A stretch of 59,602 nt of DNA, counting the filler, from Jimgerdemannia flammicorona (taxonomy: Eukaryota): NCBI GenBank assembly GCA_003990765.1. It is 2 parts of 2 records of this genome, joined end to end, with 100 filler letters (N's around TTAATTAATTAA, not from the genome) between each part and the next. Parts side by side here need not be neighbours in the genome. Positions count along the whole stretch, not along the records: positions 1 to 29,772 come from RBNJ01000472.1; 1 more part is not named here. The stretch is one strand, 5' to 3'. The position numbers and the translations under genes were made by a program. Below are positions 8,870 through 35,400 of the stretch, in pieces; position 1 is the first letter of the stretch, and every line of letters starts with the position of its first letter. Below the pieces are notes generated by a model. That model made no database searches and was not told the origin of the DNA. It was given only the letters and a program-made list of their open reading frames with translations.

Positions 8870-9360
8870 CATAAGAGTATATATATATAAACTAAGCCTC
8901 TTTTTAATTGCAAATCCTCTTTAATAACAAATAATATTGAGTCAAAACAAAAAACAAAAAACAAAAAACAAATAATATTGATTATATTATATTAGCATTA
9001 ATAATCACTATATTTTGGGCTTTAGTTTAAAATAAAAGAATAAAAGTATAAATTCTTAGAAATAAAATAAAATATAATAATTAAAGTTAATAAAATAGTT
9101 AGTATTATATAAAAGTATTATAAATATTACATTTTAATATAAATAATTAAATTAATATAAGAACTTCTTTAATATATTATTAAGTTTGCTTATATTATAT
9201 TTGTTCAACTTATAAAGTTAAAACTCAACCAGAGTTGACTAAAAATTAATTAAAATTTATTATTAAAATATTACCATTAAGCTATTATTATTATTCATCA
9301 TTTTATAAATTATCATATTTTATCTTTTAGCAATTTATTATCTTTCAATTACAGTATTAT
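8870..9360. other. AT-rich, CpG-free island; probable mutated transposon relic
   Basis: Abrupt shift to very high AT with TpA excess, resembling the decayed elements elsewhere in the window; no recognisable domain. Confidence 0.4.
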
Positions 9361-9459
9361 ATATCCAATATTGATGATTACGTGACATAGTTAGCTTGGT
9401 CGACTGGACTTCATTGCAATTATATCACTTCTCCAAATGATATTTGCAAAGTTAGTATA

Positions 9460-11378
9460 TCACCCCATTATTTTTGTCTTAATTTTCTTGAAGAATTCGA
9501 TTATGGTGGCCGCGTGACCTTGCGACCGGTATTCAGCAGTCCTGATATGATTTTGAAAGACAATTACATTGAGCAAAGCAAAAAGTTGAACTCAATAGGA
9601 TTTTCGTGTTACTTACTCTGTAACAGACATTTCCTTCTGGAAACAAATGATGTCTCCATCCTGAATTTCGGACTGTTGGAACGTTGCTGATGTCTTCATG
9701 GCTTCAATCATGCTGGGCTGGATTTCCTTTAAACGTTCAATTTGTAAGATATCAATTGCTGATGCTTGCTCAACCATACTCCAGGCGCGTAATCTAAATA
9801 CGTCAACATGTATATAATTAACTTACCTCGAACAATTTCAGCACAGTGTTCCACGGGAATCCTTTCTTCTTGTTTAAGATCGGGATGATATCGCAAACCT
9901 TCTCATTCGGCTGCACATAGAGCTTGCCGCAACCTCTGTTGACACGCATTATCCAAGGCCATATCTGATCAAGTGCTTTTGGCACGACTATAACAAAGTA
10001 GCAACATCATGAGATAAAATGCTCTACTAACTCAATTGTCTGTGTCTTCGGGTCAAAGTACTTGATAAAGACCATCAGATATGGGCTGGTGAATGTACCC
10101 TCTGGAGGCCAGAGTTTACTGTCAATCGGCTTATCAACCACCTCGAGATAGAGTCGCAGGGTGCTCTGGTAGGCGCGCGGTTTGTTTTGTATGATTTCCA
10201 TTGCTATAAACCAATGATTTAACAAACACTGTGTTAGTACAAGCCTTTTATGATGCCTGAAACCAATGCCCGACAGCCGCCTTCATTTGGAGGAAAGGCG
10301 AACAATTAAAATAAATAAATATCCTAACACTCACACAAATTGGCTTCTGCCTCCAGGATTGGTTGGTCAGGCCTGACCGTCCGATTTTGTCGGTCGACCA
10401 TAATCCATAACCTGAATCTGTTGACCGGGAGCTGGAAATGGTTTGCGACTGATTGCTTGAAAACTACAAATGGCTCCTTCTTCTTTACGAGAAAGGATGG
10501 TATTTGTGACGGCATCGTCCTATCGTCAAATATCGCCAGATCGAAACCTTGATGCACTTTGAACGTCTCGTCCGTTATTATCTGGAGCAAATGATCGCAC
10601 ATGTAATAGATATTGTAGTAAGGGAACTAGACAACTGGTGAGTGCAACTCACCTTGACAGTTAGATGCACTTTCTTTTGCTGGTCCCGAGGGGCCTTCTG
10701 CTCGTCAGTATACTTTTCTAGAGTGGATCGTTCGGGACGGGGGGCCGCGGGTGGTGTGGAGAGCCAGAAAACAACGTTTAAACGTGAAAAGTAGTGTAGG
10801 TATGATGATGGCGTCGAGCGGCAGATCCAAAAGAGATGTGAAACAAGATGGGAGTAAGGAGAGCAGGCAGGGTGCACTCACAACACTCTCTCCTCATTAG
10901 ACAACTCCGTGCCGACCATTCAATGATTGCGTGTTGCTCTTCGCTTACCATACTCGCCGGGGAGACTCTTGGCTGTCTTCAAAGCTTCAACCCATCTCAT
11001 TATTCTTCTCGCTGGTCCAAATGGAACTCCCCTTTCCTCAAGTTCTTGTTGCGTCAGCGTGAGGAGGTCCATGCCGGCGAGTTCTTGCCGGCCAAAAACT
11101 GCGATGTTTTCGGGGGTGAGTTGGTAGATATCGCTCTCTTCAGTGAGAAATTGGATAACATCATCGGCGCTCCATGTCTTCATGACTGAGGTGGGAACAC
11201 TTCCCGAAGACTATAAAGCCGTGACAGAGCGATGAATTTATAATGGGTTGTTAGAACTACAAATGCAGAAAACCTTGAAGGACCTGTACGTTGTGATATA
11301 TATACCACAGTCTCTATCGTTGTATTTTTTTTTTTTTTTTAACCATAAATGGTGTGATTGGATGATTTAACATACCAT
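9460..11378 (-). CDS. SAM domain fused to USP7/Ubp15 C-terminal UBL1-UBL2 region; no MATH or catalytic domain
   Basis: SAM: WSADDVIQFL...QELAGMDLLTLTQQELEERGVPFGPARRI. USP7 UBL: HLTVK|IITDETFKVHQGFDLA...RFRLWIMVDRQNRTVRPDQP...LRLYLE...MVFIKYFDPKTQTIEGCGKLYV...LKLFEEI.PSMIE.MK...SEIQDGDIICFQK. Intron phases reconcile without frameshift; TGA stop at 9462-9460. The ATG micro-exon at 11378 is inferred. Confidence 0.8.
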
Positions 11379-12209
11379 CTTTGTTACGAGCAGAAGTGCA
11401 GATATTATGTTGGGAGACGCAACGTTGTGAACGTGTGAAGAAGGTCAAGAGCATCGGTAAGAGTTTTCAGTCACTCGTAAAGCGATCTATCAAGACCAGA
11501 AGTCGAGTACGCACTCTCCAAGGCAGAAGAGGTATCGCAGGATAAAAGAGGTTCGAGGGTCAAGTAAAGAAGGTTGTAGGATTTGTTAGACGTCATCGAC
11601 GTCATGATGAATCTGGTGGCTTTGCTTATCCCACGTGAAAATAGAAAAGTGGTATGTATAAAGAGATTCAATTCAATTCAAAATAAAATAAAATAAAATA
11701 AATAGAGTTAGATATTTTGTTATCTTCTTGATAAATATGAATATTTTAAATATTATAAAATTAATTAGTAATATCTTTTTAATAATTTTAAATAAATATA
11801 AATAAATAAATAACCTTTTAAATTAAACTTTTTTAATTAAGTAATATAATATATTATTAATTTTATAATTTTTATTATTTATTAACCATATTAATTATTT
11901 ATATTAAAGAAAATTAAAATTATATTAATTAATAAAATATAAATTAATAATATATTTTATAATAAATAATTATTAATATTATATTATTAGAATATATAAG
12001 TTTTAAATAATATTTATTTAAAGTTTTAAAGTTAAACCTAATAAATAAATAAAATATAATGAGTATATCAAAAATTGATAAAAATTTAATATTGTATAAT
12101 AATATTATATAATACCTATCTATGATATTATAAATAATATTACTATATTAAGAGTCTAAAAAAAAAAAAAAAAAAAAAAAATTACTATATTAACTTTGAG
12201 ATTTAGTAA

Positions 12210-15200
12210 TATAAAAAACTTTAATAACTATTAAAGATTCTGCAGATGTTGAAATATTTATAATTATTGAAATTTTAGCAGATATTAAAAAGATTTAATA
12301 CTTGCAAAGAATGACTTATAAGAAATATAGTCATAACTTAGCTATCTTATAGTTAGTAAACTTATATAAATATCCCAGTATCTAGAGTGAATAAACCTCA
12401 GATCAAAATAGTTTAAAGTAAAGAGAAAGTAAGAGAATTAATAAGTCTATAAACAGATATACTTTAAACTTACTTATCTCTATATTCTAAAAACTCTGTA
12501 GAGTTAAAGTAGATCAAATTTTTAAAATACAGAAATCTGATATATATAGTTATATATCTGCTATATTACAACTTAGTGCCTATTAACTAGTGATTTAAGA
12601 TGAATCTCTCACTTTCAAGCTAAATAATAAATAACTGCTACTACTTAAATAAATATACAAATTGAATTAAGATATCTAGATAAGATAGATATAAGATTAT
12701 CAGCATTCTACAAATATACTTCAGATAAATTAATTATCATCTTTATTAATAATTTTAAGTAGTATATTACTGTAAAGACTCTGATAGTAAGACAGCAAGT
12801 AGCTCTTATATTCTCTAGTCTCTGAGGCCCTATAAGAGTAGTATTCATAGATATAATCTATATAAAAAAATAATAATAATATTGTGCTGATAGTACAGAA
12901 GACCTGGCTCTGAGTTACCTATTATATAGATAAGATCAAGTAAGCTCTAAAGAATTAGCTCAATATAATATACTAAGAAATGAGTGAGGATCTAAATATA
13001 TTCTATATCAGAATCTGATATTAGATAATTCTTATAGATTATACTAATACTATCTGAGATTAAGTAGCTGAAGTAATCTTTATAAAAAGAATCTACTTAG
13101 AGATAACTATAACCATCTACTCATCACTAGTAGTCCTAGATCTACTATAAAAGATTATCTATATCTAGCAATACTAGATAGTCAGATATCTATAAAATTA
13201 TATAATAAAAAGAGTTACTAGAGTCAGAATTGAAGTACCTAAGATAACTAGTATAATTTCTATTATAATAGTCAATCAGAATATACTATAGCCAAAAGCT
13301 ATAGAATAATAAAAGAATAATAACTCTATAGAGGAATTTACTAAGAGATTTGCTAAAACAACCATTTATCTAGAAGATATAGTAAAGAAAATCAAAGAAA
13401 GAAATCATCATCCAGTTTAAAAGTTTGCTGCTATTTTGGACAAAAAGAAAGATATCTACTATATCTATAGAGAGGAAGATTACTACTTATATAAATATAT
13501 AGATGAGATTAAGTATAAAGTCTAGCCAAGTAATATTACTCAAAATAAGGAACAGGCTAACACTATTACCTTTGAAGAAATTGGAGAGTTAGATGAAGAA
13601 TAGAAGGTCTATCCTACTCAAACTACTAAGAAAAATATTTATAAAAAACCCTATAAGAAATTACCAGGGAGATCTAAGAAAAACCTAATAGAAAAATAGA
13701 TAAAGACTACTATAGAAAACTAAGCTGAAGAAATAGATCAAGATATGAAGTCAGAATTAGTGCTCCCAATGAATCAAATCAAATCAAATTTGGCCCAAAC
13801 TCAATTCAATTCAATTGAATCAAGGGTCCAATTTGATTTGATTCAAATCAAATCAAAGGTCCAATTTGATTCAAAGTTCAATTCAAACCTTAATTTTCAA
13901 AATGTAATAACTCGACGAAAACTCATCCAAATTTAACATATTTTAGCTTGTTAGATTCACCGTATTAATGTGATTCTAACAAGCTAAAGTATGTTAGATT
14001 TGGATGAGTTTACGCTGAGTTATTGCATTTTGAAAATTAGGATTTGAATCAGACCCTCGATTTGAATTGGTTCGAATTGAAAAATCCCCAATTCGATTTG
14101 ACTCATTTAACCCTGATTCAAATTGATTCAACTCATTTGAAAGCACTAGTCAGAATAGACTGTTTAAGATATTATTTGAAAAACTATCTCAATTAGTAAG
14201 AAAGAAAAGGAGAAGAAGCTTTGTAAATTAAAATCTTCAAGTATGATATCTTCAAAGATCTTAGCCAACAAAAGATCAATGTAATCTTCAGCCAACTGAT
14301 AGAAATATATATCCACATTCAGATAGTAAATGAGATTTAAATTGATCAAAATAACTAAGAATTAAGGTTAGAAGATAACTAAGGCCAATAATGTTTAAGA
14401 GAACTTAGAAAAAGAAAGTAAAGACAATTGTAAAACCTTTGTCTATATATAATCTATCAAATTGAAAATAAAATCTTTAAAGTTATTATTAACATCAGAG
14501 TAGGAGGATATCTCCTCAGTAAGAAAGCAGCAAACTACTTAGACTGGGAGATTAAAGAAGTAACTAAGCTAGTATTTATTATAGTAGACAATATATATAA
14601 GAGCTATATCTCTGAGAAATAACTGAGATATTTCTATCAAGTTTGGAGGAGTAATCATTCTAGTAGATATAATTATGACTAATATAACTAATTATAACAT
14701 TCTTATTAGCAATTAATAGCTTTATAAAGTAAGAGCAATAATTGATCTAAATTCTCAAAAGATACAGATTATTTATTATAGACAGAAGATACAAATCTCT
14801 ATTAATATTAATAAAGAAGTTTTATCTGAAATAAAGGAAGAAAAAAGTGAGTAAGAAGAAGCTTATATAGTAACTACTTAGAAAAAGAAGAAAGTCAGAT
14901 AGATCAATAAAGAGAACTAGTATAAGAAGATTATAGAAAGATATATACTATAGAAAGTCTGCCTCCAGAGAATCAATATATACTGTATGAAGTATATTAA
15001 TAATTACTATCAGTGTATCAACAGAATTAAGAATATCTACTATTAAAGAAGACAGAAGACTCTTAAGAAACAGATAAGAGAGAAGAAAGAAGAGAATGAG
15101 AAAGAGAATAATAAACTATCAGTTCTTCTGAAAGATAGTGATAATAAAGAAGAAATTAAGGTCAAGATTTGGAAAATCTATTTTGATACAGTTCTACCAG

Positions 15201-18200
15201 AATATAAGTTAGATAATATAGCCAGAATAGATATTGCCATAGTTAAAAAAACTATACTCAAACTCTAGACAATTATCTTACTTATAACTAATCTGGAAAT
15301 AATCATTCCAAAGAGATTCTCAAGACAAGAAGCAGTCTAGCTAGAAGTGAGATTACTATTGAAAGAGAAGTTATTGATTCAAATTATATTAGAAAAATAT
15401 TACTCATTATTAGAAATTACAACTCTATAATTCTATTTTCAATCAAGAAGAAGAATTGACTGATACAGATATTAATCTTTCTGGTTCTTCAGCTAAAGAT
15501 TACAGAAGTCAAGAAGTTAGAGAAAATAGAAAGAGAAAAAAAAGAATTTAGATCTACTAAAAGAAGAGTATTTGCTAGTATATATCAAAATTACTGAACT
15601 AAATTACAAAAAGGAGAAAACTATAAATAAGTATAGCTGTATCATCAAAAATGAATTTCTACTTAAGAAGAAACTCAAGAAGATACTCTATAAATTTGAG
15701 GATATTTTCGCTATAGATTTCAAAGATATTAAGAGAAAGACTCTATACTATAACTATAATACAAATATAGAAGATATCAAACTAATTTATCAAAAAGTAA
15801 GACCAATTCTATTAATCAACTGTAAATGGCTCAGAGAAGAAATCAAGTAAATAAAAGAAACCAGTATTATTAAAGAAGTCAGTAGTCCTTGGACTTCACT
15901 AGTTATACTAACTTTGAAGAAAGAAAGCAAGCTAAGAGAATTTACTCTAAGACTCTGTACTGATTATAGAAAGCTCAACCTAGTTACCAAGAAGAATTAC
16001 TAATCACTATCACTCATCAGCAATATCTTTATAACTCTGAGAGATAAAGTACAGTATTATAGTATTTGTATTTATATATATTCAGAATTCTATCAAATTG
16101 ATCTTACAGAAGTAGTAAGTGAAAAGTTAGTCTTCATCACTCTAGATAGAACTTATATCTATCTATAAATACTATTTAAAATATATAATATACCAGTAAA
16201 CTTCTAATAAATAATAAATAAAATCTTTCACTATAATATGAAAAGATAGATATATAATAGTTTATATGGATAATATTATTATTTATAGTAAGATATCTGA
16301 AGAATATCTGTAGCATATCTAGCAAATAATAGAAAAGCTAAGAAATCATAGCTTATATATATTAAGTCTAAGAAGTACAAATTTGTAGAAATTAAGATCT
16401 CTTATCTTGATTACATTATTAATCAGAATAGAATACATATAGACTCTCTCAAGATTCAAGCAGTAACAGCATATCCAAGGCCCACTATCATTACTGAAGT
16501 CTAAGCTTTTATAGAATTAGTTTCATACTATTATAGATTTATTAAAAAATTCTCTAATATGTATTATAGATCCTATATTATAGGTCCTATCTATAAACTC
16601 AATAAGAAAGATATCAAATTTCAGTAAACTGACAGATAACAGAAAGTATTCAATAAGCTCAAGATCAGACTGATCTAAGTATCTATCCTCAGAAGATCAG
16701 ATTAGACTCAGGAATTTATTCTATAAACAGATGTAAGTATATAAAAACTAAGAGCAGTTCTGGTCTAAAAAGATAAAGTAAAGTATATCATTATATATCT
16801 CAGCTGAGAGACCTGAGAAGCTAAAAAGAAATATGAATTCTATAAGTTAGAATATCTTATAGTCATCTGGACTATAGAAAAGTTTTACTACTATCTTACT
16901 AGAAGATACTTTATTATCTAGACAGACTACTCAGCTCTTACCTGACTACTGATTATTAGGTAATCTAAAGAAATCTATAACAGATAGATTATGAAGTTGC
17001 AAGCCTATGATATAACTATCATATATTACTCTGAAAGAATTAATATCAATATAGATACTCTCTTACAGAAACTCAAAGGACTTCTAACTAGTAAACTGAT
17101 CAAAAATAAGAAGCTTTACTATGAAATTATCATTTACTTAGAATAGTAAAAGATATCCCAACATCTAGAAGAATAAATATAAATGATTATTAATAGAATA
17201 TAGAAATAATTTAAGATTAATAAAAAAATACTAAAGAAAGAAAAGCTACTAGTCATATCTGAATATAAAAAAGAGTAAGTAATAATATCAGTATATATAT
17301 AAACTTAGCTATCTAAGAGAAACTAATATCTACAATAAAACAAAAAGAATAATATAGTAGTCAGAAATAGAGGAAGATATTAGATAATTTATTAAGGCCT
17401 ATAATAAATACCAAAAATAGAAATAAGACAAATAAAATCAGATTCTAGAATTAGTATATATAGAATCAGTATTTTATATATATATCATAATAAATATAAT
17501 TAGCTCTCTACTCTTGACTTTGACTGATAATCAATATATCATTATCATTATAGACCTTTTTACAAAATAGATAGAAGTAGGATCTCTTAAAGAGGCCAAT
17601 ATATAGTCAATACTAATTTCTTCTATAAAGAAATTATCTGCCAATTCAAGACTCCAATATAAGTAACTATAGATAGAGAAACAAAATTTATAAATCAGTT
17701 CTTTAAGGTTTTCTACAAGAAGTATAAGATTCAGCACATCCAGACTATAGCTTATTACTCTCAGAGAAATGGACAAGTAGAAAAAACAAATAAAACTCTT
17801 AAGAAATATCATACCTAATCAATAAAGTAATATTACAGCCCTCAAGATTATCAGTACTATGTATATAATGAGCTATAGAAAGATAGTAGTATTCTACTAA
17901 GCTACCAACTATGAAAGAATTCTTTAGATAGTATTCAGAGTATAGTACAGATATATTTATCATAAATCTCATATTTTAAGATCTACTAGAATTGGACCAA
18001 GTTTCAGAAATACTTCAAATTAAGATAGCTACTAAATTTGAAGTCAGAAATGAGAAAAGAAGATTGGATTAGAGAATGTTAGCTCTCTTATACTCAGATT
18101 ACCATTGCTAAGAGAATGTATAAGTTATTCAAAAAGAATAAACCAGTCCTAGTCTATCTCTAAGGAGTAGTTTCAGAAGACTTTGGATATATCAGAAGAT

Positions 18201-18791
18201 AATATTAAAAGAATATAATGATATAAATTATATGGTACAAGAAAATTCAACTAATTGAAGCTTGAGAGTTTGAATAGAATATTTTAGAGATAAATTATCT
18301 ATTTAGGTAAAAGTTGTGATAATTGATCTAAATTAGTAATATGAATCAGAAAAATAGACATTTGATCATAGTATTTGAATCTGATTCCCAAATATAATAT
18401 AGCTTTACAAATAGCAATTATTTCAGTAATGTAAAAAACTTTAACAACTGCTAAAAATTCTGCAGATATTAAAATATTTGCAATTATCAAAATCCTAGCA
18501 GATGTTAAAAAGATTCAACACTTACAAAGAGTGACTCACAGGAATTATAGTCATAACTTAGCCATCTTATAGCTAGTAAACTTATATAAATATTCCAATA
18601 TCTAGAATGAATAAACCTCAGATCAAAATAGTTCAAAGCAAAGAGAAAGCAAGAGAACTAGTAAGCCTGCAGGCAGATATACTTCAAACTCACCCACTTC
18701 TGCATCCCAAGGACTCTGCAGAGTCAAAGAAGATTAAGTTTTCAAGATACAGAAATCTGTACTTACACAGTTACGCATCCACTACATTACA
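12210..18791 (+). mobile_element. Heavily mutated Ty3/Gypsy LTR retrotransposon (element 1): LTR-gag-PR-dUTPase-RT-RH-IN-accessory ORF-LTR
   Basis: Direct repeats ~12210-12570 and ~18430-18791 ending TTACA; PBS-like tract after the 5' LTR; decayed motifs collinear with element 2 (dUTPase ~15150-15570, RT DYRKLN and YMDN ~15960-16280, integrase GQVEKTNKTLK ~17770). Confidence 0.88.
13758..14148. mobile_element. Non-autonomous hAT-type MITE (391 bp) inserted in gag of element 1
   Basis: Exact 8-bp TSD GTCAGAAT (13750-13757 and 14149-14156); TIRs TAGTGCT...AGCACTA; subterminal AATCA/AATTC pentamers; internal hairpin. Removing it restores collinearity with element 3 gag. Confidence 0.9.
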
Positions 18792-22948: not shown

Positions 22949-24220
22949 AAAATCCACTGCTCGCTATTTTGATACCGACAGCCATTATTTCCAATGGTAA
23001 ATATTACTTAAGTGCTCGCCTAGTTGTGTTCTCCAGTTCTCTTTCTTTGACCTTGAATACCCCGTGGTTTAACGAACCCTTTCTTTCCGTTTCTATTTTG
23101 ATAGCAACTATCGGGCGCCGGTGACCAACGACTTGAAACGGGGAATCAAGGTGCTCGATGCTGGGTGAGCCATTGCAGATCACTATCTCGTCACTGATTT
23201 CGATATCTTGAACAAGCCATTAATCTTTCACACGACGCAATTAGATGCGGCACGGGCATATGGACCACCGTAAGTAGTTTACAACCATCAACTCAACACT
23301 TACTTCAAGTACACAATATATCTTGGTATTGGAGAACAGTGTTGTCCTAACGAAATGCAATCTCCCCCCCCCCCCCACCCCCCAACAGGAACTCGCCAAC
23401 GAATTCCCCAATTCCGAGTTTGTTGGCACCGACATCATTAACAATTTCGCAGACGCAGCCGCGAGCGCGCCGTCCAACTGCACCTTCTTGGAGGCCGATA
23501 CCATCAAGCGATTGCCTTTCGATGACAACACGTTCGACTGGGTGTTCCAGAGGGCTATGATAACAAGCTTCACCGAAAAAACGTGGCCGCTTGCCTTGAA
23601 GGAGCTCGTTCGTGTTGTGAAACCAGGTGGTTACATTGAACTACGTAAGAATTTCGATAATTTTTTATTTTTATTTTATTCTTGGCCATTGTGGGCCCGG
23701 TACCCTCTTGGAGTATTGCTAATGAAACGGTATTCGCTCTACGCAGTTGAAGGCTCCACATTGCGAAATACCAGTCCGGCACTAACCAAGCACATCAAAT
23801 GGCGTACGTACTTGCAGAAATCCTTTGCACGTGATTCTATTTAAAAATTGTGGAAGAGCGCACACTCACATCGTTTACGCAATTCCAGTTCAAGTTCTAC
23901 TAAAATGCCGCGGAGTGAACGAAGATTACATGTCGACCTCGGCCCCACTGACGGCAGCCGGGATCATCGATGTGCAGACCACGGCCCATGTATGGGGGAT
24001 CGGGTGGGGCCCGGAACGGGACATCGCCGAGCCATTCGCGAGGATTTGGGTCGAGCTCGTTTGTGGAACGCGACCACAGATATGCGCTGCGCTGGGGATC
24101 GGAGACTCGGAATACGACCAAACGGTCGATGACATCAGACAGGAGCTCAGCTACGATAACCCCGACAACCGTGCCATCGTGCACGTTTTCTCACACGTCG
24201 GACGCAAGCCCATGGCCTGA
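22619..24220 (+). CDS. Class I SAM-dependent methyltransferase (fungal LaeA/Methyltransf_23/25-like), ~7 exons
   Basis: YPMPNDQCEYVRLNSQHFLIR; motif I KVLDAG|CGTGIW; EFPNSEFVGTDI; LPFDDNTFDWVFQR; ELVRVVKPGGYIELVE; ends VGRKPMA*. True start may lie upstream (ATG ~22479). Confidence 0.88.
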
Positions 24221-24446: not shown

Positions 24447-27400
24447 CTACAGCAAGAGGTGGCAATGTGTGCAGATCAATGACGGACAAATTAATCCTCC
24501 TGCAAACCACGTCCCATTGTGAGCCATGTTTCGCGGATACTTTCTCCATACTAGTAACGTTCCGATGTACGTACCAACAAGTGGGCGATGAAGGTGAAGA
24601 AACAAGTATATACGAGATCGAAAGAGGATAATAATAACCTTACCCTCGTCTCGAAAATCTAAATAATTTATTGGGCAGATCCTGCTAGTCTACTTACAAA
24701 ACTAATTGGAATAAGCATACTATTTGAGATCATCAGTCTACCTATAAACCGCAATCATAATTCCTGTTGGCGCGAAATGTCTGTGATATTTACAAAAATC
24801 GGAAAATAATAGCCTCGACATCCCTTCACCTCACCTTTGTTTTCCGCACTCCATACCGTCGTTTCTGACTTTTACCGTCCCCAGTCACCGCTTTCACAAA
24901 TGTCGCCAAATTCTCCAGCTCCTCAATCACTTCCTCTGTGCAGCTCATGTATGCATACCACGACAGATTCCCGTACTCAAGCCCAGCCTTCCCCGTCAAA
25001 GGCATCTCTGAAGAGAATTGCCGAATCCGGTTGATCATCCTGATCCGCGCGATTCGTGCGGAAGGAAAATATGGAGGGAGCGGGACTTTTGAGAGGAGCG
25101 ACCCGCCAAGAACGTGGAAGTAGACGAGCATTGCGGCCGTCTGGGTAAGAAATAATTGAAGCGAACGAGGGTGAGCAACAAGCCCCAAGTATGTGACAAG
25201 ATCATTGTCTGGCAGGGTTCGGAATACTCACAACATCTCGCCTGTACATCTGAATCGGCTCCAACCTCAACTCCTCAATCACTTCGGGGCTGATATATGC
25301 CGCGGTACACCGCAAGCTCGTCATTCGGTTCATCAGGTTCTGGGTGCTTTCCACAATCTCCATCCACGACTTCTCCGGAAACGGAGCCTTGAGCCTCGGT
25401 TCGTTGTGAGTCAACGCAAGTAGCTCGTGGCACTTCTGCAACCCCGCACGCAAGCGCTTCTCATGTGCGTCAAGCCGTCGGGTACCGTCGGCCGCGTTGG
25501 ACAGCTCTTCAAAGCCGAGGTAGTTGCCAACAATCTCGGAATAAAGTGCGCCGAGGTCGTAAATAACGCGGGAGAGGTGTTTGCGAAGCTGATGGCGTGC
25601 GACGAAGGGCCAGACACACCTGGAAGCCACAATAGGACATCAAAAGTGAATCTACTATTGCCATTTCACCAAAACACAACTTTCATTTTGAGGGCTATGA
25701 GATATCTACCAGTTGAGTATCAAAGCTGTCAAGACTCCTACCACGATGGCCAGAGTTCGTTTCCTAAAAAAGGTAGTGTGAAGCGACACACGGAACGATA
25801 AGCATTTGGAGTACTTTGCCTCTACACCTTCCACACCAATTTTTCAAAACATGTTCACAGGCTCACCATCCCAGACTCACGACGTTGTCAAGCTGATCGG
25901 GATTTGCGTATATGGTCAGCGTCACCACGACAAAGGTAATCATGCCAATGCTCCCAATTTTAGCATAGCGAGTTGCGATGAAGATGTACCTGAAAAAATA
26001 AATGCAATTGTGTCTTGAAAGAGTCAGAATCACGTGAACAGAACCAAAGTACAATAGACTTAAAAAAAAATGTTCTTGTGCTCACCAAAAAATATAGCCT
26101 GATGTAAAGATTGCCAAAAAAAAAAAAAAATTGTCGACATATCAAATCACATCGTTATGCAACACATTCCACCACGAGACAACATCCCCACTTACCCATT
26201 ACGACTTCGAGACACGTCAACACATACGATTTCGGCCCGATGATTGCGCACGTCGCCATCCCAGCCAACCCTCCAAACACAGTGCCACCAACCCTAAGGA
26301 AGCCCTCCCAGATTGTCCCTCCTACGGCCGGGTTCATAACCAGGAAGACGGACATGGATGCCCATTGCCATCGGACCTCGTTGAACTGCTCCATAGTTGT
26401 GTCGAAGAAAGCCAGCGACGAAATGACCGTGATGGCCAGAGCCATCTTGACCGCGAACTTGGTCTCGTACGAGCCGATACCGTGGGTGTAATACCAGAGG
26501 CAGCGGCGGACGCGTAGAAATTCCAAAGAGGAGGCGGGCCGAGCCTCATAGTTGTCTGACTCTACGCCATCTTGCTCGGATACTCCGAGAGTGGTCGAGT
26601 CGGATGGGAGTATCTCGTCGTCTTCGTCGTCTTCGTCGTCGTCCTGGTCAAAAATGGCTATATAATTATATAACAGTCAAGAGATGCAGTGATCAGTACT
26701 ATATCACCGTAGCATCAACCTCCGGCCTCACCAAGCACACCTCTGATACGAGTGGTAAACCCAACGCTTACCAGGCAGATTGCCTCCGCGATCCTTCTCC
26801 ATAAAATGGTTCGAACTTCTCAGCCACTCGGAGACATCAATCCTCGGTAAATAGATCCTTTTCCTTCTCTTCCCGCCACACTCCGGCTCCGCTGTCTTCA
26901 ACGTCATCACTCCGTCTGCCAGGTTCCTTAACTCGCGCGCGACCTCGCGCAACGAAAACATAAAGTTGAAGACAAGAAACAGTTCCTCGCGGTGCCCAAG
27001 ATCGAAGTACCTAAACGTGGCGTTGTATTGCATTGACTCGAGGTGCTGCTTCTCGTGCGAATCAAACGACTCAATCGCTGCAGTGATCTGTGCCGAATGA
27101 TCCGGCGCCGGCGCCGGCGCGGCCTCACCAACCGGCGGCACCTTCCGAGTCATCAAGGAGAGCAATCTTAACCACTGCTTTCCACGGCTCGCAGGATTAC
27201 TCTTGCTGGCTTCGGCGTCGTTTTCGTTTAGGGAAATATGCGAGACGCCGATGTCAAGCTCCTTGGCAAGCTCCAGTCGCATTGCGTCCAGGGTATTCTC
27301 GCAAGAAATGGTCAGTTCCGCGAGCGGGTCCTTGACACCCTGGAGATACTTGACCAGAAGACGCTTGTCGCCAAAGGCGATCTCCTTTCTAGGTAGTGGG

Positions 27401-28293
27401 CGCCGTCGCGGGCTGTCCAAAGACAGATCGGACCTACGTGGCGACATCTTTGGTCGCGACGGGTGTTCTGCGAGCGAGCCGATAGAAGTGACGGTATCTT
27501 GGTTGAGGTCGAAAAGCGAGCGGCTCAACGGTCTTCCCAGCTTGTCATGATCAGCAGGCGAGTCTCCGTCGCACTCCGACTCGGAATCTTCCTTGTGGGT
27601 GTGAAGATGCAACTCGGAGTGCGTCCGGCTGAGGGGTCTTGGCCACGCACCCTCGGGCCTCGACACGTGGTGCTTCAGGCACGTCGTGCACGTCGAGTGG
27701 TCCTCGATCCCGGCGTCCTGGAGCTTGGTCAGCAACTCCAGGTATCCCTTGCTCATCTGCACGCTTCCGTGCCTGGCCTCGAGCAAGAACTTCTCGTTGC
27801 GTAAGCTCAACGCCAGCGAGCTGAGGTGCTGTGCGAGGCGGCCGATGGTCTTGGTAATGTCCTTGAAATCCGAGGGGCGGACGTATCCGTACGAGATCTC
27901 GTAACGCGCCTCGCGATCGGCAATGAGCACCTTGGCCATGGCCTTGCGCATGTTGGAGCTGGCCTCCTCGACAACGGAGTTGGGCAGATCGAGGCGGTCC
28001 GGATCCAGCAGGAAGGCTGAGGTAGTTAGGTTGAGCAGGTTACGGATCTCGGAGAGGGACTCGTCGACGGCACGGCCAAGCCCCTGCGAGGCAGACTCGC
28101 GCCAGATGAGGATGTTGATGAAAAGGGCGACGATATTTCCGATGGAGAGGGGACAGACCACGTCGAAGACATATTTGCCTGAGAAGGTTGTATTGTCGAC
28201 ATTGGTGGTGAGGGAGAAGACCATGATGAAGGTGGCCATGATGCCGGAGAGATTGAACCTGAACAATTTTTGCAAATGTTATATAAAGGAGAG

Positions 28294-28325
<32 letters not shown>

Positions 28326-29513
28326 GCGATTCAAAAGCGTGATTCAATTAGACACTACGCATAAACTGAATTAGTTACCTTGGATACTTTGCCCACACAT
28401 ACGTAACGAAGAACGATCCCGTCAACAGAAAGACCACCAGAATGACCCTCCCAGCATGATCGCCATATTGTAAATACTTTGCATTATACGCCACGCTCGC
28501 CCCCACCCCCGCCAACGATATGGTCATCCCGACCAGGATGCCAAACAGGCCCACGAACGCAGCCTCGACCTGCGCTCCGACAGTCCTAGCTGGGTGATTA
28601 TATACAAGCGACACGGCGCTCATGGCGGCGTATGGCCCAACCCACTGCTGCACGGGCGGGATGAGAGTGAACAAGGATGCGATAAGTGTGGCGAAGACAG
28701 CCTTGTGGATGCGGTGTTGGACGCGGGGGTGGAGAGTGGGTTTGAAATAGTCCAAGATCTGCCTGAGAATGGGTGCGAACTGGAGAATGCGGCGGGTTGG
28801 AGACGGGGACGAGGACGGGGACTGAGGCGGGGACGGGGAGGGCTCCCAAGGGGGAATGCCTTCGTCGATGGCGATCTGGACGTCCTCATTAAGAGTAGGT
28901 GAGGTGCTGGTGCGGGGTTCGTCGGAGAAGGTCACGTGGTGTGGAAGGTTATTCGTTTTGTCGTTGCCGCCGGGGGTCTCGAAGACGGTCATGTCGAAGA
29001 AGCTGGAGGGAATAATGGAGACAAATAATGCGTATAAAATTGATTCCGCGAGGCCGTAGGAAAACGATTGATTAGAGGGAGAGTCTTTTTGCGCCAAGAT
29101 GTAAAGACTATCCAACTAAACGATCTTGGAAAACCGCCATGATGGGTTCATCAAATGCTAGAAGAAAATGAGTTCTCCTACCCTTCTCGATTTTCCTCCA
29201 TATCAAAGTGATCCTCCAACGCCTTTGCATGATGTGCCAACGGACTGCCGGGGAGAGTAGAACTTCTCGCAGCTTGTTGGGTTACGTGATCTAACCATCC
29301 CTTTCCCACAGTGTGGGTGGGTGTGGACGGTCCTGGAGATGGGAGGGGAGTAGAATGGGGGGTAGCGTGATAGCTGCCGTAGTAGAGGTTGGGCCGAAAA
29401 CACAATTTCCCCGGGCGGTGTGTGCCCTTGTTGAGCTCGTCCTGAAACGACCATCTCGCTGGCTCGCTGGCGCCGGCATTGTCTGCATCACCGTGGCCGG
29501 CCTCTTCGCTCAT
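24447..29513 (-). CDS. FUSC/aromatic acid exporter (ArAE_2, Bre4-like) multi-pass membrane protein, multi-exon
   Basis: KAVFATLIASLFTLIP, HPARTVGAQVEA, EARYEISYG, REELFLVFNFMFSLREVAREL, KFAVKMA, EGFLRVGGTVFGG, VWPFVARHQLRK, EPRLKAPFP, LPPYFPSARIAR. The last exons are uncertain (an alternative in-frame stop lies at 24826). Confidence 0.85.
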
Positions 29514-29772: not shown

Positions 29773-29872
29773 NNNNNNNNNNNNNNNNNNNNNNNNNNNN
29801 NNNNNNNNNNNNNNNNTTAATTAATTAANNNNNNNNNNNNNNNNNNNNNNNNNNNNNNNNNNNNNNNNNNNN
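29773..29872. other. Artificial assembly spacer: N44-TTAATTAATTAA-N44
   Basis: Total length 100 nt, with a central six-frame stop linker. Confidence 0.95.
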
Positions 29873-32074
29873 CATTGGCTGGTGATTCAAGACGAATCCC
29901 TCACTTTCAAGCTGAAAAACGAACAACCCCCACAACAACTACCCTGACTACAAGAGTCACCCCTGCAAGAATTCAAGACAAGATGGAAATGCATCCCCCC
30001 ACATTCTATGGATATACTACTAAAGAGTCAATCCTGACCTTCATTGAAGACTTTGAACAATTCACCACTGTACGAGACCTTGGTGTGGATGCTCAATTGG
30101 CCCTTCTACCAGTCAGCCTCAGAGGACCTGCCAGAGACAAGTTCAATGCAGCCACCATTGCTGATGCTGGTGCAGTCAAACTTGCCAACATGAAGGCCTT
30201 CCTCAGAACAACATATTATACTGAAGAGATCAAGCAAGCTCTCAAGGATCAACTCAATACTATCTGCCAGGGACTTAGTGAAGATCTCAACTCATTCTAT
30301 ACCTGAATCTGCCACCAGATTGTCTTGGCTGGCTATGATAACTGCCTCAAGGAACAAATAGTGGATTCAACCTTCCTCAAAGAAGTTCACCCTGAAATTG
30401 CCCTAGCAATCCAGTCTACCCCAGCTGTACTGACCCTTGATCAGAAAGTTGTCTTTGCACAGAGATATTAAACTGCCAGACACTCTGCCAAACACTCAAT
30501 GGAGAAAATAACTAGCATCAAGACGGAGCCATCAAAGCCAACTAGTATCTTACCTGCCACAGTTGTAAACAGATAACCAACCCCACCTACCCCCAAGACA
30601 GCCAAAGCTGACCCAGTGGAAGAACTTGCCAAGCAGTTTACCGAGATGACTGCATACCTTGGTGATATTGTTAGAGAAGTCCGAAGCACTAACAGGAGAT
30701 CAGTGCAGAGATTTGCAGCTGCTATAGAAGAATACAATATCACATGCTTCAGATGTAGAGAAGAAGGCCACTATGCAAAGAGTTGCATAACCGAAATGAG
30801 ATACAAAGCCCAACCAAGCAATGCTAGCAGAACCAGAGAACAAACCAATGCAGTAGTCATCAAGGAGATTGGTGACACTGATGATGAAGAATACTATGAG
30901 GAGCTCGAATTCTACCCTGCTACTGAAGGTACCAGAACCCAGTCCAAGCCCTATGACAAGAAGAGCAACAGCAAGCCAGTTGGAAGACCAAAGAAGACTC
31001 CAGCTGTCACTATTCAAAGCAAGACCCAACTTGAGAAGATTGATCAAGACATAGAGTTAGATGAAGCCACCTGCCAAATTATCGAAGGCACTACTCCAGT
31101 CTCAGGAGAAAGCGAGAGCAAGAAGGAACAGAAGCTGCACAAGACCAAGATCCACCAGTATGATATCTATAAGGACCTCAAGGAACAGAAGGTCAATGCC
31201 ACTTTTGGACAGCTAGCTGAAGTCCCTGCCTTCAGACAGCAGTTGAGAGTAGGACTTGCAACTACTGTCAAGAATCAAGAGTACAAGATTGTAGAAGCTC
31301 ACAATACACAAGAAGAATCTGAGAACTCAGGTGAAGAATCCGAAGACCAGCACAAGACATCAGCCTATACCCCCTACCAGATTGAAGACTGTATCTTTGA
31401 TGCCATCATTGATACTGGTGCTGGAGAATACCTCATGAGTAAGAAGGCAATTGACCACCTAGGTTGGAACATTGAAGAATTCACCAAGATGGTCTATGTC
31501 ACAGCAGATGGTACACGAGCTACCCCCCTTGGCAAAATCTGAGAAGTCCCCATCAAGATAGGAGGAGCTACCATCTCAGTAGATGTGATTGTTACAAGTG
31601 CCACCAACTATAATATCCTCATTGGCAACCAATGGCTTCACAAGGCCAAGGCCATCATTGACCTCAATGCCCAGAAGATGTAGATCAACTACAGAGGAAG
31701 AAAGATACAAGTTTCTATCAATGTCCACAAAGGAGTCCTGCCAGACATGGAGGAAGGAGATAAAGAAGACACAGAGGTCTTTATGTACTTAGTGAATAAG
31801 AACAAGAACAAGACACCCAAGCTCACAGATGAGCAGTGGTATAACAAGATCATTGATGAGTATGCCCCTCAAGGAAGATGCCCCCATGGTACTAGAATGT
31901 ACTGCTCTGAACATCTGAATGACTGCTGGTCCTGTATCAGTGAAGTCAGGAAAATCCACCAATAGAAATATGAGCAAGAAGCTGCTGAAGCAAAAAGGAA
32001 AGCCAAAGAAGATGACCAGCCCCCAGAGCTTCAAGCTGATAGTGATGATGAGGAGGAACAAGAATCAGACATCA

Positions 32075-32492
32075 CCCTCAAGGTCAAGAAGTTTCACCCT
32101 GAAGTCAAGATCTCAGAATATAAGACTGAAGGAGCCATAGGAATGGACCTTACCAGCATCTAAGATGCTACTCTTAAACCACAGACCACCACCCTACTTG
32201 GCACTGGAATTGGAGTCAAGTTGCCAGAAAACCATGCCGGAATTATCAAGACCAGAAGCAGTCTGGCCAAAAGCGAAATCTCAGTTGAAGGAGGAGTAAT
32301 TGACCCTGATTACACTGGTGAGATTTTTCTTATAGTCAGAAATTACAACCACACCACCCCCTTCAAAGTCAAGAAGCATGACAGGATTGGCCAGATGCTG
32401 ATCTATAAAATCAAGAAGCCCAAGATCATAGAAGCCACTGAACTTATCAAGACCAAGAGAGGAGATCAAGGCTTTGGATCTACTGGAAGAGG
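32075..32492 (+). pseudogene. Retroelement-encoded dUTPase between protease and RT
   Basis: GAIGMDL, TGIGVKLP, RSSLA, GGVIDPDYTGEI, DRIGQM, RGDQGFGSTG (trimeric dUTPase motifs 1-5); one CAA>TAA stop. Confidence 0.93.
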
Positions 32493-35400
32493 AGCCTATG
32501 CCATCACCAAGATTACTGAACTTGAGCACAAGAAAGATGAGGACCAGAACAAGCACACATATACTATTGGAGAAAACTTTCCTCTGGAGGAACAACTTCT
32601 CAAGATCCTGTACCAGAACGAAGGAGTACTTGCTACAGACTTTAGGGATATCCACAATCAAGAACCCAAGTACTATCACGAAGTTGACACTGGTGATACC
32701 AAGCCTATCTATCAGAAAGTCAGACCGATACCACCTGCCTACAGAGAGTGGCTGTGAGCTGAACTCAAGGAAATGGAAGAAGCCAGAATTATCAAGCAAG
32801 CTATCAGCCCCTGGGCCTCACCCATTGTTCTCACCCTAAAGAAAGGAAGTAAGCCTGGAGAGTTTGCACCAAGACTCTATATTGATTACAGGAAACTCAA
32901 TGCCATCACCAAGAAGAATAGGCAGCCCTTGCCAAATATTCAAGAAATTCTTACCACCCTTAGAAGTGAAGCCAAATACTACACCACCTTGGATCTGTTC
33001 TCAGGCTTCCATCAGATCAGTCTCACTCAAGATGCCAGTGAGAAATCAGCCTTCATTATACCTGATGCCACCTATATCTATCTATGAATGCCATTTGGAA
33101 TGTACAATGCCCCAGCAAGTTTCTAGTGAATGATGAACAGAGTCTTCAGCAATGAGATTGGAAAATAGCTCTTTGTCTATGTTGATGATGTGATCATCTT
33201 CAGCAACACTGTACGGGAACATATCAATCACATACAGCTAGCCCTCAAGAGGCTCAAGAAGCATGGCCTCTATATCAAGCCTAAGAAATGCAAGTTTGTA
33301 GCTCAAGAAATCGCCTACCTAGGACACCTCATCAACCAGACTGGAATCCACACAGACCCCATGAAGATCGAGGCTGTTGCAGCCTACCCAAGACCCAGAA
33401 CAACTACAGAAGTTCACGTCTTCCTTGAACTGGTCAGCTACTACAGAAGATTCATCAAAGGATACTCCAACATTGCAGCACCTATCTATGAGCTACTGAA
33501 GAAGGAGACCAAATTTGAATGGACCAAGGAGTACTAAGAAATCTTCAATAAACTCAAGACCAGGTTGACCCAAGCACTCATCCTCAGAAGACCAGACTGG
33601 AACCTAGAATTCATCCTGCAGACAGATGCGAGTGCTATAGAACTTGGAGCAGTCCTAGCTCAGAAGAAAGATGGATATGAATATATCATCTCCTATGCAA
33701 GCTGAGGTACCCATGGAGTAGAACAGAACTATGAGTCATGCAAGCTTGAATGCTTAGTGGTAGTTTGGGGAGTAGACAAGTTCCACTACTATCTAGCCGG
33801 AAAACACTTTACCATTCAAATGGACCATTCTGCTCTTGCCTGGCTATTCCACACTCTGAACCCCAAAGGAATATATACCAGATGGATCTATAGGCTGCAA
33901 GAGTATGACTGTACTGTTAAGCACCACTCAGGAAAGACCAACACTAATATCGATGCACTCTTAAGGACACCCCAAAACACCCCCATCAAGACTACTCAAC
34001 ATGAATAAGGAGCTATACTATGGATTAATCAGCTACCTTGGGCAGCGGAAGATGTCCAACCACCTCGAACCCTGGACAATTACCATCATCAACTAGACTT
34101 GGAAATAGTTTGAATTAGACAACACTACACTCAGAAAAGGAGGAAAGCTAGTAATACCTGAACACAAGAAGTATCAAGTAATGAAGGAAGTATATGAGCA
34201 AGGATACTTAGGAGGAATCAACATATATGACAAGGCAAAAAGAACCATGTAGTGGTCCAAGATGGAAGGAGACCTGTGCCAATTTGTCAAAGAGTGTGAC
34301 AAGTGCCAAAAACAGAAACAAGATCAGCAAGACCAGGCACCTGGATCATCAAGAATTGAGCCTATCCCCTTCCACCACATCACAATGGATATCATTGGAC
34401 TACTACCAGTAACACTATTAGGAAACCGCTATATTATAGTTATTGTAGACCTCTTCACCAAATGGATAGAGGCAGGAGCATTACAAGAAGCCAATGCCCT
34501 CTCTATAGCCGACTTCTTACACCGAGAAATCATCTGCCACTATAAGATACCAAAGAAAATTACAACAGACCGTGGTACAGAATTTGTCAATAGATTCCAT
34601 GAGATAATATATCAGAAATACAAGATCTAGTACATCAAGACCACCGTGTACCACCCTCAAGGAAATGGACAGACAGAGAGAACCAACAAGACCCTCAAGA
34701 ACATCCTAGCAAAGATCTCAGAGACATATGAGAATTGGGATAACTATCTCCCAACTGCCCTCTCTATCCTACGAGATATACGGTCACAGAGCACACATTT
34801 TACCCCAAGAGAGCTGCTCTTCAGAGAAGAAGATTCTGATGGAACCTCAGCCATAAATCTAGACCTAACTTGGAGATAGGTTGATGCAGAAATCCAGAGA
34901 CTACACCAAATCAGGAAGAAGGCTGAAGATTATATCACCAAGTCACAAGTACTGACAAGGAAGAATGCAGAAAAGAATCACAAGGCTCTAAAACCCATCC
35001 GAATCAGAGAAAAGGTTCTACTGTATTGAAATATGGTAGAAGCCTCATAGTCGCGAAAACTGGAGCCTAAATGGGAAGGACCCTTCTACATGTAAGATAT
35101 CAAGGGAACTACCTTCTGGTTTAGAAAAATCTCAGGGACCATACTGTCTACCATGGTACATAGGAACAGGCTCAAGAAGTACCATGAACCTATACAAGAG
35201 AAGCAAAACATGATGACTGCCCATGAGGTTCTAGTCCACGAATCATAACAGCATGTCCCATGACCAGCAGGCTATCTGTCTGGACCATTCTCTAAGGGAT
35301 ATAGTACTGGCAACTACTCATCCATGAGACTTTTGCAGTCAGAGGAGTTCAAACCATCAACTGATTGGTCAAGATCAGAATCAGGCCCTTGCTCTATATG

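Follow-up and report, generated by a model that had tools for sequence, protein, structure and literature searches.

A spliced SAM-USP7 chimeric gene of the fungus Jimgerdemannia flammicorona and the proposed role of its protease-less product as a competitor or adaptor for clients of USP7

The window analyzed here is a stretch of 59,602 nucleotides (filler included) from assembly GCA_003990765.1 of Jimgerdemannia flammicorona, a soil fungus of the Endogonales; its positions 1 to 29,772 come from record RBNJ01000472.1. This part carries, on the minus strand, a chimeric gene in which an exon encoding a SAM domain is spliced to exons encoding the UBL1 and UBL2 domains of USP7. An earlier note, made from the sequence alone, had described an intact chimeric gene of SAM and USP7 UBL1-2 without the protease, and the open seven-exon frame and the junction-spanning contigs reported below bear this out. 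The locus is a transcribed, correctly spliced protein-coding gene in which a SAM exon and a USP7 duplicate truncated at both ends, reduced to the connector helix and UBL1-2, share one mRNA. We estimate at roughly one in two the probability of the fuller reading, in which the SAM exon took the place of the 5′ part of the duplicate inside a USP7 intron and the putative product competes for USP7 clients, or serves them as an adaptor, without catalysis.

The seven exons join into a single frame of 1020 nt (339 codons and a stop codon, with no internal stops) between positions 11183 and 9460 (Table 1). All six introns, 71-231 nt long, are of the GT..AG type, and each of the 12 splice dinucleotides is intact. 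No further copies of the gene were found within the window. The earlier note had counted about eight exons and had placed the intron between the SAM and UBL parts at approximately 10948-10721; the reading frame and the contigs show seven, and the contigs place the intron at 10948-10718.

Three public sequencing runs (X1, X2 and X3) contained parts of the locus, and their contigs were aligned over positions 9300-11700. X1 and X2 come from one organism and two studies, and their RNA status is a guess of the run labelling; since their contigs lack introns, and two contig ends run on into Illumina adapter letters, we read them as cDNA-derived. The X1 and X2 contigs drop all six predicted introns at the exact predicted bases (CT..AC on the plus strand), including the SAM-to-USP7 junction, 10717|10949. 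A single X1 contig (depth 194.5) joins exons 3, 2 and 1 as 10361-10581, 10653-10717 and 10949-11175, and a single X2 contig (depth 44.3) joins the same exons as 10364-10581, 10653-10717 and 10949-11211, with 0-1 mismatches in the contigs spanning these three exons. The check proposed in the earlier note, reads across the SAM-UBL intron, is thus answered by contigs of two runs.

At the other end of the gene, one X1 contig ends at 9390 and continues into adapter letters, and the X2 contigs extend to 9386 and, upstream, to 11211. Because the contigs cross the stop codon unspliced to 9386/9390, there is no further 3′ intron, and an eighth exon at the 3′ end, with a donor near 9463, was ruled out by contigs that are unspliced from 9540 to the same two ends. 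Another X1 contig, 9906-10061, retains intron 4. In X3, a soil metagenome, part of intron 1 and the SAM exon are covered as DNA. Positions 11244-11700 and 9300-9380 and most of intron 1 have no X1 or X2 cover and were not used as evidence on 5′ exons.

Table 1. Positions, strand and content of the features of the chimeric gene and of the adjoining repeat relic. UTR, untranslated region; CDS, coding sequence; LTR, long terminal repeat; o/e, observed/expected ratio.
Feature	Position	Strand	Content and evidence
Exon 1	11183-10949	-	ATG at 11183 and SAM domain; 78 codons + 1 base; phase-1 donor
Intron 1, SAM-to-USP7 junction	10948-10718	-	231 nt, GTAAGC..CTCTAG, phase 1; precisely removed in X1 and X2 contigs
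Exon 2	10717-10653	-	Leftover of the USP7 helix that links the catalytic domain to UBL1
Exon 3	10581-10335	-	USP7 UBL1; PF12436, 28.3 bits; USP7 alignment
Exon 4	10203-10032	-	End of UBL1 and start of UBL2; PF12436, 28.9 bits; contig joints on both sides
Exon 5	9935-9827	-	UBL2; PF12436, 30.5 bits; contig joints
Exon 6	9726-9617	-	UBL2 with acidic docking loop, DGD at 9660-9652; PF12436, 47.3 bits
Exon 7	9541-9460	-	UBL2-UBL3 linker, ends where UBL3 begins; TGA at 9462-9460
Minimum transcript	9386-11211	-	Seen in RNA-derived contigs; 28 nt or more of 5′ UTR, then CDS and ~70-75 nt of 3′ UTR
Possible 5′ mini-exon and intron	11378-11211	-	Hypothetical; ATG 11378-11376, 165-nt intron 11375-11211, 10 further residues before SAM
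LTR-element relic	12202-18721	.	AT-rich, CpG-depleted; GC 0.26, CpG o/e 0.07

The public annotation splits this transcript. Its UBL part is RUP46159.1 (P0001 below), a J. flammicorona protein of 246 amino acids (aa) to which exon 3 is 100% identical, and its SAM exon is modelled separately as P0011, whose 88 aa continue past the donor into intron 1. P0011 begins with MM, the window encoding V-M at that place. Taken at face value, these two models describe two small genes, one for the SAM protein of 88 aa and one for the UBL protein of 246 aa. Against this stand the single contigs that in two runs join exons 1, 2 and 3 at the predicted bases, and the annotated start of P0001 (MCDHLLQ), which lies inside sequence that the contigs skip as intron 2. 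We therefore regard two separate genes as highly improbable.

Proteins in which the SAM exon and the USP7 UBL domains are fused were searched for in several ways. Among 230 candidate proteins longer than 138 aa, none matched the SAM exon at E ≤ 10, and among proteins of near length the sole match was the 88-aa model of the locus itself. Of the atlas neighbours listed that lack a UCH domain, none had SAM. In the literature on USP7_ICP0_bdg, no fusion of SAM to USP7 UBL domains is evident from titles or abstracts. Since no longer protein shares the SAM exon, the fused architecture is absent from the protein collections searched. It is a new domain architecture made from known parts, within a lineage-specific family of truncated USP7 copies.

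Pfam searches were made with six exon translations, exon 2 being left out since both its ends are split codons. Exon 1 matched SAM_1 with an E-value of 3e-4 at 21.5 bits, below the cut-off of 23 bits, and it also fell short of the cut-offs for SAM_PNT (20.5 bits; cut-off 24) and SAM_2 (15.4 bits; cut-off 20.5). An AlphaFold2 model of the SAM exon, built on 31 aligned sequences, has a confidence score (pLDDT) of 85.5 and forms a compact five-helix bundle, with helices at residues 6-15, 17-20, 24-32, 37-41, 45-50 and 55-70. All listed matches of this model in the PDB, as retrieved by Foldseek, are SAM domains (TM-scores 0.59-0.74), including those of CNK2, Scm, Sfmbt, PHC3, SAMD1, Ph and TEL; the best E-value is 5.7e-3, and none is at or below 0.001.

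Sequence relatives of the exon point the same way. SAM-type Pfam matches (E ≤ 0.01) were present in 24 of the 29 relatives scanned, out of 49 found, and some of the relatives pass the family threshold (P0012, SAM_1, 29.7 bits). Relatives occur in J. flammicorona itself (P0015) and in Paraglomus, Diversispora, Terfezia and Cyathus, often at the N-terminus; in P0023 (Diversispora) and P0050 (Cyathus) the SAM domain precedes kinase-like modules, and it is also found in a 343-aa Terfezia protein (P0032). No donor gene for the SAM exon came to light; the best relative other than the locus itself is 43% identical. That SAM domains head Crinkler-type fungal proteins, as had been stated, is not supported by any passage that our literature search returned.

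The remainder of the frame comes from USP7. Four of the six exons tested, exons 3 to 6, match PF12436 (USP7_ICP0_bdg) above its 27-bit cut-off, and the matches are colinear, covering profile positions 1-25, 32-77, 79-114 and 115-148 of 241; the last exon has no Pfam match. Residues 6-223 of P0001 align to residues 567-779 of human USP7 (E-value 6.5e-25), an alignment that ends just past UBL2. The AlphaFold2 model of UBL1-2 has a pLDDT of 83.6, and all of its first 22 PDB matches are USP7 UBL structures (E-values of ~1e-19 to 1e-21, TM-scores 0.73-0.80). Exon 2 aligns locally to the connector helix of P0004, a USP7 protein of J. flammicorona described below, with a score of 60, compared with 24.3 ± 3.9 for 200 shuffles. 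These alignments agree with the boundaries proposed earlier, according to which the USP7 segment begins just after the catalytic domain and stops at about the end of UBL2.

A USP catalytic domain was looked for by tblastn in positions 9000-12000, the queries being residues 1-350 of P0004 together with the catalytic portions of P0007, P0008 and P0010; a single chance-level hit (E 6.3) was the only match. The transcript passes from the SAM exon directly to the connector helix, and no catalytic-domain relic was found in intron 1: tblastn gave none, and local alignment extended only 4-5 residues upstream of the acceptor. The MATH/TRAF domain, UBL3-5 and the C-terminal activating peptide are absent as well, the frame stopping where UBL3 would start. 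Because all of these parts and the catalytic domain are lacking, the chimera is incapable of deubiquitination.

What it has kept includes key residues of a known docking surface. An ungapped alignment over the UBL2 loop equates the DGD of the chimera (9660-9652) with D762-G763-D764 of human USP7 and the preceding E with E759; the equivalent of human D758 is S. Human residue numbers were derived from the offsets of the full-length chain. In passages of a published study, lysines K620 and K624 of ICP0 are described as forming salt bridges with USP7 D762 and D764, substitutions E759A, D762A and D764A as each abolishing the binding of the ICP0 peptide, and mutations of D762/D764 as disrupting the binding of GMPS and UHRF1 (PMC4457826).

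If the 339-aa product is made, its acidic UBL2 pocket would clamp the two lysines of KxxxK-type motifs as in human USP7, and the protein would recognise the basic motifs that full-length USP7 binds. Through its SAM domain it would in addition associate with itself or dock onto another SAM protein, resulting in clustering or targeting. Such a protein could serve as a competitor (a client trap) or as an adaptor for USP7 clients, which it would not deubiquitinate. By analogy with the human pocket, we consider a decoy or adaptor role plausible.

The history of the USP7 part was reconstructed from related proteins. A search with exon 3 returned 23 candidates, of which 10 reached E ≤ 0.001; five of these 10 are from J. 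flammicorona: the chimera itself, P0003 (RUP50643.1), P0002 (RUS32284.1), P0005 (RUS32460.1) and P0004. P0003 and P0002 represent one paralogue in two strains. P0004 is parent-like, a 579-aa model that contains the USP catalytic domain, and exon 3 is 72% identical to it. The identity of the chimera to the P0003, P0002 and P0005 proteins is 70-75%. A tree based on 235 aligned columns unites the truncated copies in a single clade (support 99/95), which is sister to P0004 inside a J. flammicorona clade (96/96).

P0001, P0003 and P0005 end approximately 8 residues past a common EFF motif, at a place where canonical USP7 goes on into UBL3. Because they share this 3′ truncation point, we read the family as the outcome of one truncation event followed by duplication. 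Ahead of the connector, P0002 retains a catalytic-domain tail, at the very position occupied in the chimera by the SAM exon; therefore, the SAM exon appears to have replaced that part in the lineage of the chimera. Transcription seems to extend to several family members, since contigs with loose ends at 10572 and 10585 contain part of exon 3 followed by 150 and 255 letters unlike the locus, and the visible part of these letters reads as other USP7-fragment paralogues, one of them P0005-like.

The junction itself suggests how the replacement may have come about. Compared with other USP7s, P0004 contains a 22-aa in-frame insert where the catalytic domain gives way to the connector helix. The end of this insert coincides exactly with the acceptor site of intron 1 of the chimera, and 4-5 residues of similarity lie within the intron. 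Probably the insert is a 66-nt phase-1 parental intron that the public model leaves unspliced, and we infer, from protein models only, that the chimera inherited the acceptor of a parental USP7 intron. The two sides of the SAM-USP7 junction are of compatible phase (1). Exon shuffling, which had been proposed for this gene, is supported by the phase-1 junction intron, by the acceptor that matches the putative P0004 intron at the protein level and by the contigs across the junction. In the scenario that we favour, a partial copy of USP7, ending where UBL3 starts, would first have multiplied into a small J. flammicorona family, and in one copy the 5′ part would then have been replaced, within a USP7 intron, by a phase-matched SAM exon.

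Two metagenome scans were made for further relatives. The single-protein scan found none among 75 pattern matches. In the alignment scan of 78 loci, the best full-length match (query residues 6-245) was 49% identical, and the loci represent ordinary USP7 genes with no close paralogue among them; short best segments reached up to 65% identity (L069). Capture of the gene by a transposon with terminal inverted repeats is unsupported, only low-complexity AT-rich arms of 71-81% complementarity being present.

Traces of selection were sought at two levels. In a site test, sites at which P0004 agrees with two Mucoromycota USP7s were polarised, and three more distant USP7s defined invariance. The chimera has changed at 2 of 42 sites invariant in the six canonical USP7s versus 14 of 63 sites conserved in Mucoromycota only (Fisher p = 0.024). 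The same trend is seen in P0003 (5/42 versus 17/63) and P0005 (3/41 versus 12/59), neither reaching the 0.05 level. When random substitutions were simulated on the USP7-derived coding sequence, the frame was open in 9.4% of 1000 simulations at 15% aa divergence and in 2.2% at 25%, with substitutions only and no indels. Both the site test and the simulation favour selection for an intact protein, neither of them strongly.

It is possible, though to our mind doubtful, that the gene is a transcribed but functionless young by-product of segmental duplication, which is spliced via inherited sites and is drifting to a pseudogene. Such a fate would agree with its membership in a family of several USP7 fragments whose ends vary, in which P0002 carries the catalytic tail and P0003 has lost the D762 equivalent and has deletions in UBL2; with its flanks of transposon relics in a repeat-rich genome; with the intron-retaining contig; and with a protein sequence ~30% diverged from that of parent-like P0004. 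No orthologue of this architecture was found outside J. flammicorona, nor a relative with SAM and USP7 UBL domains in any search made. Most of these points also weigh against a competitor or adaptor: the loss in P0003 means that the pocket is not kept throughout the truncated family, and the divergence, the missing relatives and the adjoining relics count in the same direction. To them must be added that the site test is modest and the paralogues are not independent, and that the RNA status of X1 and X2 is a guess, though their contigs lack introns and flanks. On the other side, drift does not readily account for an open 1020-nt frame with 12 intact splice dinucleotides, for substitutions that avoid deeply conserved sites, for the retained key residues of the pocket or for a frame that would be unlikely to stay open under neutral substitution, even without indels. 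Length differences among the paralogues are whole-residue gaps, which also argues against decay, though the models are gene predictions and so in frame by construction.

A functional product might also have acquired a new partner, for instance with UBL1-2 as a bait (an integrated decoy) that senses or soaks up endobacterial or mycoviral factors directed at USP7, and with SAM relaying to a conflict or signalling system. The SAM relatives, which stand N-terminal to varied C-terminal modules (the kinase matches P0023 and P0050, and Terfezia P0032), are compatible with this, as are the lineage-specific expansion of USP7 fragments and the known targeting of human USP7 UBL2 by the viral protein ICP0, in the passages cited (PMC4457826). 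No such partner is in evidence, and retention of the most conserved USP7 sites, the pocket included, fits the ancestral binding mode too, so we consider a new partner rather unlikely. A bolder version of the competitor or adaptor role, in which the product is a SAM-clustered natural trap that tunes which KxxxK proteins (e.g., chromatin or DNA-methylation factors) escape ubiquitination, or a decoy for symbiont or viral factors aimed at USP7, in an expanding lineage-specific family, strikes us as a long shot. An effect on DNA methylation control had been suggested in the earlier note; no support for it was found, CpG depletion of the adjoining repeats being the only related observation, and the link is speculative.

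The 5′ end of the gene allows two versions. The contig-covered leader, 11184-11211, contains no ATG, and the ATG at 11183 is the first start in covered sequence. Further upstream, the ATG at 11378, where the start had originally been placed, is followed by GTATGT, and joining it in frame gave an open frame at one of eight AG sites tried, 11212-11211. The X2 contig end at 11211, with 2 unaligned letters, is compatible with this join and does not prove it. The start proposed earlier is therefore frame-compatible and possible, and translation would begin either at 11183 or at an additional mini-exon at 11378.

The gene forms a 2.3-kb island with a GC content of 0.45 and a CpG observed/expected ratio (o/e) of 0.84. 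On its right lies the relic of an LTR element (Table 1), bounded by 300-nt direct repeats at 12202-12501 and 18422-18721 that are 83% alike (LTR pair). The retention of CpGs noted earlier holds, as the CpG o/e is 0.84 in the transcript versus 0.07 in the LTR flank. Both flanks had been described as mutated AT-rich repeat DNA; the right one is a CpG-depleted LTR relic, and on the left the AT-rich stretch is only ~435 bp long. A second AT block at 44-49 kb has a CpG o/e of 0.03, compared with 0.84-1.0 in genic blocks. The index of repeat-induced point mutation (RIP), (CpA+TpG)/(ApC+GpT), is ~1.0 in both AT blocks. Since this is so despite CpG depletion, the decay of the repeats is CpG-specific and not classical RIP; it looks like methylation-driven CpG decay of transposons.

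Elsewhere in the window, neighbour genes were noted at 2-658, 2461-2883, 23278-23844 and 26728-29115; the neighbours comprise a DUF4097 toastrack protein, the C-terminal barrel of a glycine-cleavage T protein, a class I methyltransferase and an ArAE_2_N membrane protein in two open reading frames (ORFs). Retroelement ORFs occupy 29821-33000, with a zinc knuckle and an aspartyl-protease match at 30577-31542 and a dUTPase domain at 32164-32757; a run of N lies near 29821-29870. Positions 38000-44000 show a sustained strong GC skew of -0.32 to -0.49 over ~6 kb. A tandem-repeat search of the skewed block (37-45 kb) gave nothing at score 100, and the one long ORF tested in it, 42821-43600, has no Pfam match.

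The gene is an RNA-backed case of exon shuffling giving birth to a new gene in an uncultured mycorrhizal fungus of early-diverging lineage, and the split annotation had missed it. If its product is made and binds as proposed, it would represent the USP7 docking module in a naturally occurring dominant-negative or adaptor form; the module's surface is also used by viral ICP0 and, in animals, by GMPS and UHRF1. It would then amount to a natural experiment on a docking surface uncoupled from its protease. In the truncated-USP7 family, gene birth, constraint and decay can be compared side by side.

Several known systems can be set beside the chimera. It resembles UBL1-UBL2 of USP7/HAUSP (fungal Ubp15) in sequence, fold and the acidic loop E759/D762/D764, and it differs from the full-length enzyme by everything on either side of this segment, by the S in place of D758 and by the added SAM domain. 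With the truncated J. flammicorona copies P0003, P0002 and P0005 it shares a clade and, with P0003 and P0005, the 3′ truncation; it differs from P0002, which has a catalytic-domain tail in the place of the SAM exon, and from P0003, which has lost the D762 equivalent. Its SAM domain has the five-helix fold of the polymer- and heterodimer-forming domains of Ph, Scm, SAMD1, CNK/HYP and TEL, which are its top structural matches, whereas identity to them is only 19-34% and its SAM_1 score is below the cut-off. Pseudo-deubiquitinases are non-catalytic paralogues of deubiquitinases that serve as scaffolds. Like them, the chimera is a relative of a deubiquitinase that is unable to cleave ubiquitin and could act by binding; unlike them, it lacks the whole catalytic domain, which pseudo-deubiquitinases keep as an inactive fold. 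Finally, young genes of the jingwei type in Drosophila are exon-shuffled chimeras in which, as here, a partial duplicate is joined via an intron to an exon of different origin in a single mRNA. In contrast to that type, the duplicated part of the chimera has kept its introns, which argues for a DNA-based duplication rather than a retrocopy.

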